Positions 101-22,842 of a DNA stretch of 22,842 bases are shown here, piece by piece. Numbering within the stretch: the first letter of the stretch is position 1; each line of letters opens with the position of its first letter. The notes below the pieces were generated by a model. That model ran no database searches. It saw only the letters and a list, made by a program, of their open reading frames with translations, and had not been told where the DNA came from. This stretch comes from a virus: UHGV virus genome UHGV-1660455. One strand, 5' to 3'. The translations under genes were made by a program, and so were the position numbers.

Positions 101-3100
101 TTAACCTGTGAATGAACCAGATCCGTGTGATACTATGACAGTAGGCGAATAAATGGACGCGCCCCTGTTATTTTGAGCGGACACTTTAATACGTACTGTT
201 ACGTTTGGACCTGTTACAACAGCAGAATGCATAATAAGTCTCTCCACGTCTTGCACAGATGAACCACTCTCATTGCCGTTAATATTGATTAGTCCTGCAC
301 CATTACCTTTAACGTTTGCTATAACACAGACGTGTCTTGCGTGCCCAGAACTGGATGAATCCGTATAAGTTATTACCTTTTCTAAAAGGCCGTCACTAGA
401 CCGACTAACGTCAGTTCCGGTGTGCATATTTGCAATGTCCCCGATAAAACTTTGGGCTTCCACAGTCCCTTTGAATTTACCGCTTGTTGCTTGTATCTCA
501 CCAGTAAATCTACCGCCACTAGCATATACTACACCTCTGACGGTCACATTGTTGAATTCAGCATCTCCAGCTTTATTCAACTTCCAACCAGCAGAACCAG
601 CTGCATAGTTGTTGGACTGGATATAGTTGCCGATTTTTGCGTTCTCAATGGTGCCGTCCTGGATGAAGCTGGCCCGGATGAATGTCTGTCCATTCTGGAT
701 CACAAACGGCAAAGCCACGCTATTTCCGGCTGCCGTGGTGACGGCGAAGCGATCAGCCAGGAAGATAACCTGCGACTGCATGCCGGATGGCGTATTCTCC
801 ACGCCGATACCCATCCCCGCGGCGTAATACTGACCGTTGCTGGAAACGCCAACCTTGATGTTGTACATCGCGCTGAGGTCGCCATTAACGTTTGCTATCG
901 CCTGAGCGTTAGTGGTGATGGCGGAGGTATGCCCGTTCACGGTCGCCGTAATGCCGTTTATCTGCGTGGCCGTAGCCTGCTGATAGTCGGAGAACGTCTG
1001 ATTCAGGCTGTTTATGGATGCCTTGTTGCCGTTGACATCCGTCTGCAGGCTCAGCAGAGAACGCGCCGTTGCCTCCTTCTCGTTAACGATTACCTCATCA
1101 ATACGATCCAGCTGCGCACTGTTCCCTGCGACCGAAGCTGACAACGATTTACGCGTAGCCACTTGTGCCAGCCCGTTCTGGATAATTGCGATAGCAGAGT
1201 TCTTCACCCCGCCCGTCATGCCGTCCATAGACACGCTGATGCTGTCGATTCGCTGGCCCAGTGCGGTATCAGCAGTCGCAACAGTCTGCTCAAGATCTGA
1301 GAGAGAAGACGACACATCACCGACCGTGCTAGAAAGCTCATTAACGCTGGTCTGAACCTGCCCGATGTCCTGCGCGTTTTTTGCGATTTCCTGCGCCTGG
1401 AGTTCAAGTTCATCGTTGGCCTGTTTGATGTCGTCAGCCATGCCAGCAATTTTTTCATTGCTGTCCACAGCGTTCTCGATCAGGTCTTTGAACGTCTCAG
1501 ACCCTTTGATGTCTTCAAGGATCACATCTGTGATGTCAGAAACGTCGATACTGGCCTGCCCACGAACCCAGCCGGTATAACCTGACTCGTTACCGCTGCG
1601 GTCAACCAGCTGCGCGCGGTACCAGAAAATCTGCCCCGCTTTAAGGCCCATCTGCTGATATTTACGCTGTGGGTATGGCACATCAGCCAGCAACATCGCA
1701 TCGTCCTCAGTACCGGTCAGGCTGTACTGAATTTCCGTCTTCAGTGTATCGTCCGTATTGGCCGGGAACCCCCAGTTCAGCTCGATACCGAACACCACGT
1801 TTTCAGACGCGATGAAACCCACCGGCTTCGGCGGATTCCCGTCCTTGCCCGTCAGTGTTTTCTCTTCTGAATATCCCCATCCGGACGAAATTTCAGCGGC
1901 ATTGATGGCACGCACGCGAACCAGGTAGCGTCCCGCATAAATACCCGGAACATCGAACGATGTGGTGGAGCTGCGCGGCACATTGACCCAGTTCCCGTCA
2001 TTGCGGCGCCACTGTGCTTCATAGGCGATGGCGTTCTTCGCCTGGTCCCAGCTGACGCGCATGGTCTGAACGTTCACATTCTGCTGAACCACAGAGAATG
2101 AATTGATGACGATGTTGGCTGGCGGGGACTGATTACCTGGTGGAATAATACTTATTGGCCGCTGGTCGATAATGGCACCGGTATCGATACGCGCATATTT
2201 ATCCGGATCGTGCAAAGCGCCAGCAATCGAATACGTTCCGTCATTATTATCCGTAACGCTGATAACGCGATATTGCTGCGCGTAAAGCTCTTCAGACTCG
2301 ACAATCCACACCGATTCCACTGCAGGTGTTTCGCTGTATGCCGTTGTCACAGTGACGGCCCGCCCGTTTACGCTCTGTATCGTCCTGCTCTGCGATGCGC
2401 CGGACGGAAGGTTAACCATCAGACGGCTTCCGGGAGCGGCTGCCGAATCACGATCAAGCGTGATAACGCGACCGTTAACCGCGCTGATGCGCCCTCCCAT
2501 CACTTTTCCGGAAAGCAGCTCATCGGCAACCGCGATGATATAACCAGGCTGTGGGATCTTACCGTCAAGACCAACATCGAACGACACGATGCGATCCTTG
2601 TTATTGGTCAGGATACCCCAACGTCCTTTGCGGTTTGCCTCTGACTGCCGGGTACAACCAATGGCTGTCATTTCGAGCTGATTTGTGCCAAAGCGAGCAA
2701 CGAGATCCTGCTCAAATACAGGCTCCATCGCATCCGCGTAGGCATTACCAGGATCGGACCAGGAAACCAGTGCCGTGGTATAGCGGGTTTTGGTGGTGCT
2801 GCCCGAATAGGTAAAGCGCCCATTAACCACGTTTGCACGCGTGTAGCTGTAATCCACATCGCGGGGCATATCCGCCAGCGCAACGATTTGATCGCCACCC
2901 CAGTACGTCATGCCCCGGAATATCGCCGCAAAATCACGTAACACGGTATAGGCGTCATTCCTCTCCTGCACGTACACGTTACAGGTATAGCGAGGCTCAG
3001 TGCCGCTACCGCCTTTACCATCAGGAACCGGCTGATCGCAATATTGCGCGACCTGATAAAGCGTCCATTTATCAATATTGGCCGCCGTCAGGCGATTGCC

Positions 3101-13715: not shown

Positions 13716-14981
13716 TTAAACGGGGGTGTTTAACAAATCGTCAGCGGCATCAGAAGATGCGCTACCTGCTGGGAGTGCACCGGGTGCTGTTTCCATCAAA
13801 CGATCCAGCGCCGTATCGGTACGCGCCTGGGCACTTTGCGGTGCAGCAGCCAGAATGCGCTGTGCGCTCTCTACCGTCATACCCGGCGTTTCGGCCAGTG
13901 CTCGCGCCTGTGACTCACGCCCTTTAGCCTCATCGCAGTTCAGGATGCCCATGATGCGGCTATTCTCTGCAGCTACTGCTGCAGTAACCTGCGCACTGAC
14001 ATCTACAGGGGCCGCTACGGAAGCAATGGTCGTGTCAACGGTAGTGACCTGTTCAGCTGAGGCAGTTGTCTGAGTTGCTGCCTGGTCAACTGGCTTAGTG
14101 GTCACAGCTGAAGCAGAAGGTGATGGCATAGTTCCTCCAAGGGTTGTTTTTTTGCGTCTGTCGAGTGCTTCGCGCATCACGCCGAGCGCATCGGTATTGT
14201 TAACAAGTTCATCCGCCAGTCCGTTATCCAAAGACTCCTGGCCGGAGAATACTGCCGCTTCGGTGTCCAGCACGTCCTGAACAGACATGCCGGTATAAGC
14301 GGAAACCTTTTCGGCAAACATCTGACGAGTGGCATCGATACGCGTCTGGAAATCAGCACGCACATCTTTCGGAAGCTTTTCGTAAGGGTTGCCGTCGACC
14401 TTGCGATCGCCGCTGTAAATCAGCGTGACCTCAACGCCGTTAGTTTTGAGCGCAGCGCCATAGTTGCTGTGCGCCATCATGACCCCAATGGAGCCGGTTC
14501 TGGCCGTTTGTGTGACCAGCCGTCGCGATGCCGAACTGGCTATAAGCTGCCCTGCACTGCAGTTCATGTCATTGGCCAGCGCCCAGATGGGTTTGATATC
14601 GCGCATACGGGCTATAATGTCGGCGCAGTCAAACGCCCCGGACACCATTCCACCCGGCGTATCCATATCCAGAAGAATGCCGTCAACGCCGGGGTCACTG
14701 ATTGCCTGCTGCAGGCGAGCAATGATCCCGTTGTAACCCGTCATGCCGGAATAAGGCTGAAGCGCACGGGTTTTACTGACCAGCGTGCCGGAAACCGGCA
14801 AGACCGCGATACCATTTGCCACCTGATAGCTGCGTGATGGACGGGGATCCATGTCATCATCCTCACCAAACAGCGCCAGCGGTTCGGCTATTTGTCCGGC
14901 ATCAAGCGTGATGCCAGAGACGGTATCTGTCAGCCGGGTGATGCCCAACTGGCCAGCCAGCGCGCAAATAGGCGGGTTCAA
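13716..14981 (-). CDS. C: Head maturation protease / scaffold protein C (S49 peptidase family; the 3' portion corresponds to the Nu3 scaffold frame); the 5' end appears frameshifted
   Basis: 421-aa ORF that opens on a TTG directly after an in-frame TGA. It is recognisably lambda C from ...CALAGQLG... onwards, but the first 26 C-like codons lie in another frame (next feature). Confidence 0.85.
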   Translation of the reverse strand: MNPPICALAGQLGITRLTDTVSGITLDAGQIAEPLALFGEDDDMDPRPSRSYQVANGIAVLPVSGTLVSKTRALQPYSGMTGYNGIIARLQQAISDPGVDGILLDMDTPGGMVSGAFDCADIIARMRDIKPIWALANDMNCSAGQLIASSASRRLVTQTARTGSIGVMMAHSNYGAALKTNGVEVTLIYSGDRKVDGNPYEKLPKDVRADFQTRIDATRQMFAEKVSAYTGMSVQDVLDTEAAVFSGQESLDNGLADELVNNTDALGVMREALDRRKKTTLGGTMPSPSASAVTTKPVDQAATQTTASAEQVTTVDTTIASVAAPVDVSAQVTAAVAAENSRIMGILNCDEAKGRESQARALAETPGMTVESAQRILAAAPQSAQARTDTALDRLMETAPGALPAGSASSDAADDLLNTPV

Positions 14982-15046
14982 GCATCAGCGGCTCATTAAA
15001 GGCCATACTGGCAATATGCGGAAGATTACGCAGCTCGTGCGCCATC
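14903..15046 (-). other. C: Out-of-frame 5' fragment of gene C: ATG plus 26 codons matching the lambda C N-terminus, then a frame change and premature stop
   Basis: Manual translation from the ATG at 15046 gives [26 protein letters not shown], then unrelated residues and a TGA at 14903-14905. The C homology resumes in the +1 frame at ...ICALAGQLG. Confidence 0.6.
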
Positions 15047-20446: not shown

Positions 20447-20911
20447 ATGATCACCAAAGTAAAAATCAAGTTTATTTCCCCTATTGATGGATCGGTATCA
20501 GATACCCCCACGGAGCATGCAATTCCCGTAGTTCCATTGACAGTATGGCCAAGTAGCTCAAAAGATATAAACGTTTATAAACCAAATGGATTGAAGGCTG
20601 GTGCCTACGCACTTATAGATACCGGAGCAGATCTTTGCTATGTGGATTCAGACTTTGCTGACGATTTAAAACTCCCAATCGCGGAAAAAACAACTGTGAG
20701 CGGAGCCACCTCAACAATAGAAACTACAGTTCGGCATGCGGTAATATCGTTCACTGAGGACGAAAGAGTTTTTTCAACAGAATTGACTTCAGTGCCATTG
20801 GTAAGTAACGGGAGAAAATTCCAAGTCGTTTTCGGAATGCAACTAATTAAAATGGGCGCCCTTACGATGGATTTTTCCAATCAAGTATTTGAGTTAACAT
20901 TTTTTAACTAA
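20447..20911 (+). CDS. Retropepsin-like (clan AA) aspartic protease, 154 aa; AT-rich moron gene on the strand opposite the late operon
   Basis: ORF with a good Shine-Dalgarno (AAGGAAAAAGG-ATG) and the canonical aspartic-protease signature hydrophobic-hydrophobic-D-T-G-A (..YALIDTGADLCYVD..). Markedly lower GC than the flanking phage genes. Confidence 0.75.
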   Translation: MITKVKIKFISPIDGSVSDTPTEHAIPVVPLTVWPSSSKDINVYKPNGLKAGAYALIDTGADLCYVDSDFADDLKLPIAEKTTVSGATSTIETTVRHAVISFTEDERVFSTELTSVPLVSNGRKFQVVFGMQLIKMGALTMDFSNQVFELTFFN

Positions 20912-21055
20912 CCCCCCAGGGATACCTCCCTCTTTTGCAAGACTGGATAAGGGCATTGCTTTTGCTGTTTTCCTAGAATCGGTACCAGAATTGAGTTGCG
21001 ATTTAATGTCTTTTAATTCGCTCTCAATTCTCTTTACACGTTCAGCTAAAGTCAT
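20894..21055 (-). CDS. Small hypothetical protein (53 aa, N-terminal predicted helix ERVKRIESELKDIKSQL), convergent with and overlapping the 3' end of the protease gene
   Basis: Hand-translated; absent from the ORF track because it is under 60 aa. Strong ribosome-binding site (AAGAGG, 6 nt before the ATG). Same low-GC module. Confidence 0.35.
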   Translation of the reverse strand: MTLAERVKRIESELKDIKSQLNSGTDSRKTAKAMPLSSLAKEGGIPGGLVKKC

Positions 21056-21879: not shown

Positions 21880-22032
21880 GGCGTGTACCTTTCTTTGAGA
21901 TGAACCTTTGCCGCACAGGAAATCAGCCCGTCGAGGCTCGCCAGCACTAACTGACTTCCTCAAAGGCTCATTTCAAAGGGTATGGTTCGACGTGGGTTGA
22001 ATGCGCTGCGGTGCGCGGTGAAATTCTGGCAT

Positions 22033-22057
22033 AAAAAAGCCCGACCGAAGTCAGGCT
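22033..22057 (-). terminator. Intrinsic terminator after Rz/Rz1 (stem AGCCUGAC / GUCGGGCU, UUCG loop, then UUUUUUAU on the minus-strand RNA)
   Basis: 8-bp stem with one G-U pair and a UUCG tetraloop followed by a U6 run; lies 20 nt beyond the Rz stop. Confidence 0.65.
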
Positions 22058-22076
22058 CTGTTATTTGGGTAACGAA

Positions 22077-22535
22077 TCATTTAAGACACTGCTCTTTGAT
22101 GTATTCCTGCAAATATCCAACCTGTTTCGTCACTGTGACGATTCGCTCTCTGAGGGTGAAATAATCCCGTTCAGCGGAGTCAGTAAGTCGGGGGCCGGTA
22201 ACATCGCCCAGGCCGCCGGTGCTGGTCGTTCCGTTCGCGGGACAGTTTGCGTTGAGCTGCAGCCGCTTACGGCCAGCAATGACATCGCTATGCAGACGCT
22301 CAATGGTTTCTTTCGCATCAGCCAGTTCTCCGGTGTATTTGGCATCCAGTGCAGCGACATCACGCTGGCGGGTCTGCATGTCTTTAATGGTGGCGGTCGC
22401 CAGGAGGAGTTTCTCAGTGGCCTTATCGCGCTGGTCTCTGTAAGTGATGGCGTTGTCGCGGTAGTGGTTCACGAAGAAATTAACGCCAGCACCAGCAACT
22501 GCAGCCAGTAACGCTTAACCAGTGCGCTAATCATG
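22077..22535 (-). CDS. Rz: Rz inner-membrane spanin subunit (i-spanin); the N-terminal transmembrane region appears interrupted by a frameshift
   Basis: The ..[28 protein letters not shown].. periplasmic domain is lambda Rz-like. The ATG at 22533-22535 overlaps the lysozyme stop but is in a different frame from the body of the gene. Confidence 0.85.
22130..22318 (-). CDS. Rz1: Rz1 outer-membrane lipoprotein spanin subunit (o-spanin), embedded in the +1 frame of Rz
   Basis: Lipobox LLAVSG|C followed by a Pro-rich segment ..[26 protein letters not shown].., closely resembling lambda Rz1; wholly nested inside Rz. Confidence 0.85.
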
Positions 22536-22842
22536 ACAGGAACAGAGCTCGCTCTGCCTTGCGGCGATTCGTGAGCCCCGGCATCACCTTTCCGCCTGAT
22601 TTATTCCAGCGCAGAAATTCATCTGCCGCGCCTTTTATATCGCCAGCATTCAGCTTTTTCAGCAGTGTAGATGTGGAAAGAGCACGCGACCCAACGTTGT
22701 AAGCGAACGACACCAGTGCGTCGAACTGGCCTTGTGTCAGCTTCACCCTGACAACTTTCAGCACGTCATTCTCATAACCAACAAGCCCTGTTTTCAGAAG
22801 CCTGTCAGCGGTTTGCTGGTCGATAGTCATACCGCGCTTTAC
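22531..22842 (-). CDS. Endolysin, P22 gp19 / T4 lysozyme-like (GH24 family); 3' part only, the 5' end lies beyond the window
   Basis: The C-terminus ...[11 protein letters not shown] and preceding ..QGQFDALVSFAYNVG.. match P22-type lysozymes, not the lambda R transglycosylase. The frame is open to the window edge. Confidence 0.85.
   Translation of the reverse strand, partial: VKRGMTIDQQTADRLLKTGLVGYENDVLKVVRVKLTQGQFDALVSFAYNVGSRALSTSTLLKKLNAGDIKGAADEFLRWNKSGGKVMPGLTNRRKAERALFLS

Follow-up and report, generated by a model that had tools for sequence, protein, structure and literature searches.

A reading-frame break in the Rz spanin gene of an Escherichia coli lambdoid prophage contig, probably caused by mis-closed assembly gaps

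Lambda-type spanins and the lysis cassette of the window

The Rz and Rz1 genes of phage lambda (protein families PF03245 and PF06085) are the last genes of the lysis cassette and lie directly after the gene for the endolysin, an arrangement shared by the DNA considered here. Lambda Rz has 153 amino acids, and the sequence of its transmembrane domain (TMD) is different from that of the 155-156-aa allele family dealt with below. Rz is a type II inner-membrane protein with a single N-terminal TMD, N-in/C-out, and the TMD is its anchor (PMC5295617).

The DNA analysed, referred to as the window, is the whole 22,842-nucleotide stretch of UHGV virus genome UHGV-1660455. Its late genes follow one another on the minus strand in the order lysozyme, Rz/Rz1, a Rha-family gene, Nu1, A, W, B, C, D, E and so on to J, and the order holin, lysozyme, Rz is the same in relatives. 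The locus represents an unexceptional lysis cassette of the lambda type from a lambdoid prophage of E. coli, consisting of endolysin, a spanin gene Rz with Rz1 embedded in it, and a terminator-like hairpin. The Rz periplasmic domain matches PF03245 full length, a conserved 11-residue motif follows the membrane anchor, and direct reading reveals cysteines in the linker (NANCP) and near the C-terminus (EQCLK). Rz1, read in the +1 frame wholly inside Rz, has its lipobox cysteine at position 20 and a proline-rich mature part. Unlike lambda Rz, however, the N-terminal TMD is shortened and out of frame with the body of the protein. Of the attributes that go with membership in the embedded two-component spanins, the periplasmic domain, the Rz1 lipoprotein and the position in the cassette are all present, whereas a TMD contiguous with the periplasmic domain is absent from the window and present in the allele of an E. 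coli isolate introduced below, where an 18-residue stretch is part of one ORF. Apart from the break, then, this is a textbook embedded lambda-type two-component spanin, the intact sequence of which is already in public databases.

Reading frames of Rz and Rz1

An earlier, sequence-only reading of this DNA held that the start codon and transmembrane segment of Rz are out of frame with the periplasmic domain, and this is confirmed. The split arrangement is present in the window, where all lysis features are on the minus strand (Table 1), and the PF03245 body is read in the frame one base back from the short ORF that begins at the ATG. The same reading had the ATG overlapping the lysozyme stop as ATGA, which is right, and placed it at 22533-22535, which is one base off: the ATG is at 22534-22532 and the lysozyme TGA at 22533-22531. 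In relatives the lysozyme slot is annotated as a 149-aa lysozyme.

Table 1. Features of the lysis cassette and the two gap junctions (window coordinates)
Feature	Position	Strand	Evidence or comment
Endolysin (T4-type lysozyme), 3′ two-thirds, cut by window end	22531..22842	-	PF00959, E 2e-36
Rz 5′ fragment, 21 codons then TGA (22471-22469)	22469..22534	-	Cytoplasmic tail and first 11 residues of transmembrane helix
13-nt gap junction	22478..22481	-	Between 22480 and 22479, equivalently 22479/22478
Rz periplasmic domain (coiled-coil body), 131 aa	22077..22472	-	PF03245, E 6.8e-43, profile positions 1-125 of 126
Rz1 o-spanin lipoprotein, 62 aa, intact	22130..22318	-	PF06085, E 5e-15; +1 frame, embedded in Rz
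Hairpin and U-run just 3′ of Rz stop, intrinsic-terminator-like	22030..22064	-	RNA fold -17.1 kcal/mol, z -3.6
14-nt gap junction (TGCGCGGGTTTTCT) in C, head protease/scaffold (S49 peptidase)	14966..14969 (about 14968)	-	blastn against isolate

Codons 1-19 of the short ORF are identical to those of the intact 156-aa Rz of relatives. The only start available to the body is, as had been claimed, a GTG; it lies at 22472-22470, is the first start in that frame after the upstream stop, and overlaps the TGA of the short ORF as GTGA. Inspection of both frames for transmembrane segments, which had been proposed as a check, fits the same picture. The uncharged hydrophobic stretch, 18 residues long in intact Rz, runs for 13 residues in the first ORF before the stop, and the GTG-started body has neither a hydrophobic segment nor a signal peptide, its maximum 19-residue Kyte-Doolittle mean being 0.02. 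A hypothetical -1 join of the two frames would yield a 152-aa protein with an uncharged stretch of only 14 residues.

The contention that Rz1 is unaffected also stands. Its PF06085 match is clear (E 5e-15), its lipobox (...LLAVSGC, with VSGC ending in Cys20) is intact, a GGAGA lies eight bases upstream, and there are zero mismatches with the E. coli isolate GCA_002109445.1. The hairpin 3′ of Rz was brought out by folding; a consensus terminator scan did not report it.

The nucleotides missing from Rz and from C

Alignments with four relatives, together with blastn, reveal that the lesion in Rz is a clean 13-nt gap (TCGGCGCACTGGC) in the segment coding for the transmembrane helix. Where relatives have GCGTTAA-TCGGCGCACTGGC-TTTCTTCGTG, the window has GCGTTAA-TTTCTTCGTG; as written in the window the junction is CTGGCGTTAATTTCTTCGTGAACC and its counterpart in the intact allele is GCGTTAATCGGCGCACTGGCTTTCTTCG. 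The gap takes out codons G20-A23 and one further base, four and a third codons in all, from inside the helix, and the identity flanking it amounts to 1 nt only (T). The sequence-only reading had supposed that a 1-nt loss near AATTTCTTC would join the two frames into an Rz of about 153 aa. A 1-nt indel as the lesion is rejected by the four alignments, each with the one clean 13-nt gap, and the length of intact Rz is instead 156 aa (155 aa in phage Louie and ECONIH5). Close relatives have a single continuous Rz ORF starting at the same ATGA overlap, so the split is not a chance pattern; that homologous Rz genes might begin at the GTG, which had been named as a refuting possibility, was not seen among them.

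The second lesion that had been noticed, in gene C, is likewise real in the window, as a 14-nt gap that leaves the body of C in a different frame from its start codon and first 26 codons (affected stretch 14940-15045, minus strand). The junction in the window is TGAACCCGCCTATTTGCGCGCTGG and its intact-allele counterpart CCTATGCGCGGGTTTTCTTTTGCGCG. Both gaps fall in the 5′ part of late genes. Slippage between direct repeats was considered as their source and rejected, as the nearby pairs, CTGGC...CTGGC in Rz and TGCGCG...TGCGCG in C, would give losses of 18 nt and 16 nt respectively, which are not the sizes observed.

Comparison with intact relatives

The prophage of E. coli isolate GCA_002109445.1, on contig MVIN01000046.1, was reached through an exact match of the 224-aa ORF of the window (J also has exact protein matches). 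It resembles the window in its series of genes: holin, lysozyme, Rz/Rz1, Rha, a 53-aa ORF, a 154-aa ORF, the 224-aa ORF, Nu1, A, W, B, C, D, E and on to J. In the blastn alignment to the isolate contig, window 22842-12526 shows 0 mismatches and is interrupted only twice, by the 13-nt gap in Rz and by the 14-nt gap in C. Window 5491-1 is 100% identical to the same contig, and the 15.8 kb compared in total contain no substitutions. Unlike the window, the isolate prophage has both the 13 nt and the 14 nt, and its Rz and C are therefore intact; the contig encodes an Rz of 156 aa, a C of 447 aa, an A of 640 aa and a B of 530 aa. The window prophage thus differs from an intact copy by two gaps of nearly equal, odd size. 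The 156-aa Rz that results from repair of the window is a known exact E. coli protein (P0031, e.g. AFG40716.1) found on 37 contigs.

Against a 97.5%-identical prophage, MSB1_9D, the conserved part is without any other frame-breaking indel. Short indels do occur in that alignment at window 980-1300, in the divergent 3′ part of J, with J still open at 1296 aa. Because there are no substitutions relative to the intact isolate and no other frame-breaking indels in the conserved part relative to MSB1_9D, the prophage is not generally decayed.

More distant cassettes tell the same story for the segment in question. Escherichia phage Louie (PQ850616, annotated ‘Rz-like spanin’) and ECONIH5 (‘lysis protein’) are 97.8% identical to the window in lysozyme and the 5′ part of Rz, while the 3′ half of their Rz/Rz1 is a different mosaic allele from that of the window; the ‘lysis protein’ cassette of E. 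coli TC24 is 95.5% identical over its whole length. In all three the start and TMD coding sequence are the same as in the window, but the 13 nt are present.

Searches for the junctions themselves gave a consistent result. Exact scans for the 24-mer spanning the Rz junction found none in a one-genome-per-species set, IMG/VR or JGI metagenomes, and those for the C junction 24-mer found none in the one-genome-per-species set or IMG/VR; the intact Rz 28-mer, used as a positive control, was found in 40 IMG/VR viral contigs. With megablast, the full length of a 90-nt Rz junction query is matched by 17 complete E. coli genomes, and every one of them (17/17) carries the 13 nt. Exact-protein look-ups returned no record of the 131-aa GTG product, of C products of 421, 410 or 368 aa, or of a 47-aa N-terminal fragment of C. 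A 100-aa Rz product and a 378-aa C product do have matches, namely in ENA scaffold_1173 (shortened there by N-runs), in a Logan contig starting at that ATG and in GCA_045572135.

Coincidence with breaks in other assemblies

The metagenome scaffold ERZ28657847 ZELL14-1_SAMEA2467067 scaffold_1173 (ENA) is 100% identical to the window outside its N-runs, and the positions of these runs are informative. One run of 10 N is in the lysozyme gene (L058 1924-1933), and the base next to it is the last base of the window, 22842. A run of 137 N spans Rz, and the contig to its left ends ...GCGTT, 2 nt from the junction in the window. In C a 10-N run begins 8 nt past the site of the 14-nt gap, and here the scaffold contig, which ends at that run, retains the 14 nt. 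Direct display of missing bases by this scaffold is thus for C only and does not extend to the 13 nt of Rz. Further 10-N runs are in A and in B, at both of which the window sequence is correct. Measured against the isolate, the 10-N runs are true uncovered gaps of 4-23 nt, and the 13 and 14 nt missing from the window are on the same scale. The chance of two random sites being this near to the four internal N-runs is estimated at about 1e-4, so the gaps in the window and the breaks in the assembly are taken to share a cause. SPIRE was considered as the origin of scaffold_1173 and rejected, as SPIRE uses MEGAHIT contigs that are not scaffolded (PMC10767986).

The window appears to be one complete contig, with an assembly breakpoint at either end. 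Its other end is about 11 nt past the end of scaffold_1173 and 27 nt short of the end of the isolate contig. The identity shared with MSB1_9D and with several Logan contigs runs out at window 47, shortly downstream of J, and the isolate contig continues identically through positions 1-47; this is another mosaic or repeat boundary, with the ends of three assemblies lying no more than about 40 nt apart.

The Rz gap itself is at such a boundary. Many prophages have the same lysozyme sequence and the same initial 60 nt or so of Rz; a mosaic boundary follows at 22466-22480. The Rz alleles of different prophages are identical through GCGTTAATCGGCG, with divergence beginning inside the missing 13 nt, and a further metagenome contig, ERZ27334065 k115_106936, starts at window 22465, beside a C/T variant at 22466. 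Allele divergence at the gap, taken with the start of this contig, suggests that the stretch repeatedly breaks short-read assemblies. One of the alleles at the boundary, in E. coli ET846, is annotated as a DUF2570 protein.

Origin of the gaps

Most probably the organism itself does not have the Rz frameshift. We favour, with a probability of roughly 0.7, the explanation that two short assembly gaps were closed or abutted while the 13 and 14 bases belonging in them were left out, and that the break in Rz is therefore not biology; the position of both gaps beside assembly gaps of scaffold_1173 speaks for it. That the gap exists, has this size, is unique among the collections searched and coincides with assembly gaps is observed, and from this we infer that a joining step in assembly produced it. 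The window would be a short-read, probably metagenomic, contig built from the same contig pieces as scaffold_1173 or from equivalent ones. One gap left unclosed would have split the contig and set the window end at 22842, and an uncovered gap between two short-read contigs, joined without the missing bases, would have given the Rz frameshift, with the gap in C having the same origin. The real phage would then encode a normal 156-aa type II inner-membrane Rz, and this intact protein would pair with Rz1 to bring about disruption of the outer membrane, the last step of lysis. Mis-closure is the most economical account in that it covers the window end at an N-run and the junctions near contig ends, and also why the two gaps are similar in size, lack flanking repeats and come with no substitutions. 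Some points count against it. Deletions of 13-14 nt are an atypical sequencing error, and de Bruijn assemblers do not normally invent a junction without read support, so that the account needs an additional step, outside a plain de Bruijn graph, in which contigs were joined or gaps closed.

The sequence-only reading had offered a decaying prophage or an indel sequencing error as the possible causes. This was the right pair of options, though decay is disfavoured by the alignments and error of the homopolymer type is contradicted by them. Under decay, a resident lambdoid prophage would have undergone two genuine and very recent deletions, of 13 nt in Rz and of 14 nt in C, and the i-spanin gene would be a pseudogene through ordinary decay or domestication. 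The ATG would then yield a 21-residue peptide, and reinitiation at the overlapping GTG would give at most a soluble cytoplasmic Rz body, which could neither reach the periplasm nor form the periplasm-spanning complex with Rz1. Rz1 alone would be inert and outer-membrane disruption would fail, while the lesion in C would independently block head maturation, leaving a newly defective prophage. Small inactivating deletions do occur in prophages, and the loss of lysis and head maturation could benefit the host. In keeping with real deletions, the gaps are clean and outside homopolymers, both are in the 5′ part of late genes, and broken Rz or C genes are known from other assemblies (Rz of VREC0864 annotated as ‘frameshifted’; a 1-nt deletion in C of GCA_045572135); moreover the segment hit in Rz, its TMD, serves as membrane anchor (PMC5295617). 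Yet there are zero substitutions relative to the intact isolate prophage over the 15.8 kb, neither junction is in any collection searched, both events are of the same unusual size without flanking repeats, and both lie 2-8 nt from the end of a contig in another, independent assembly, whose sequence is identical and which keeps the 14 nt of C. Real, very recent deletions accordingly seem doubtful, though as the main rival they deserve to be taken seriously. From what is known of bacterial mutation spectra, two non-repeat deletions of 13-14 nt without a substitution over 15.8 kb are an unlikely mutational outcome. A variant in which the gaps are real and have a shared cause, either a host or phage process that makes repeat-free deletions of 13-14 nt in late genes, thereby disarming the lysis and head maturation of a prophage only just acquired, or a gut population of mixed intact and disarmed phage that breaks assemblies, has only a slim chance of being correct. 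An error of the base-calling type has a precedent in the related GCA_045572135, where C has lost 1 nt from a T-run and several further late genes are split, but the window lacks 13 and 14 nt of mixed sequence, and the alignments refute a homopolymer indel, making it highly improbable as the source.

Could the two-frame Rz instead be functional, either through programmed -1 ribosomal frameshifting or as a split i-spanin composed of a membrane peptide and a GTG-started body? The GTGA overlap would permit termination-reinitiation, and a -1 shift would give the 152-aa protein. Direct reading, however, reveals no slippery heptamer of the form X XXY YYZ at TTA ATT TCT TCG TGA (TTAATTTCTTCGTGA), and the joined product would have an uncharged stretch of 14 residues as against the 18 of intact Rz, while the GTG product is without hydrophobic segment or signal peptide. 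Among the collections searched the arrangement is unique to the window, and the relatives examined all have a single ORF or a different lesion. Programmed frameshifting and a split i-spanin are essentially excluded.

Broken spanin calls and neighbouring genes

The main value of mis-closure as an explanation is for quality control. Annotation of the window at face value would give a defective prophage with Rz and C pseudogenes, whereas the evidence suggests that the phage is intact and identical to the one in a sequenced E. coli isolate. Real deletions, on the other hand, would be an unremarkable case of prophage inactivation, the biology of which is already known. As the Rz TMD stretch is at a boundary between conserved and variable sequence that is prone to assembly breaks, frameshifted spanin calls in metagenome phage contigs should be checked before they are counted as decay.

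Broken calls are met with elsewhere. In a related cassette of E. coli VREC0864 (NZ_LR536431.1), the holin gene and the Rz gene (‘lysis protein’) are both frameshifted pseudogenes according to RefSeq, an indication that broken spanin calls recur in assemblies. A related prophage in GCA_045572135.1 (JBIGMR010000002.1) has terminase A in three ORFs, shortened portal and major capsid genes, and the 1-nt loss in the T-run of C, a pattern such as homopolymer indel errors, or else genuine heavy decay, typically produce.

Between the lysis cassette and Nu1 the window has a gene for a Rha-family regulator (PF09669; 21193-21879, minus strand). The exact Rha protein is recorded in 1202 blocks, beside many lysis cassettes and at least three unrelated packaging/head modules, and with such varied neighbours it behaves as a highly mobile mosaic unit. 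The slot 3′ of Rz that Rha takes up in the window is filled in phage Louie by a gene annotated as an anti-CRISPR protein (2355-2825). The 154-aa ORF (20447-20911, plus strand), which has weak retropepsin-like matches (PF13650), accompanies the 53-aa ORF (20894-21055, minus strand) beside Rha in several prophages.
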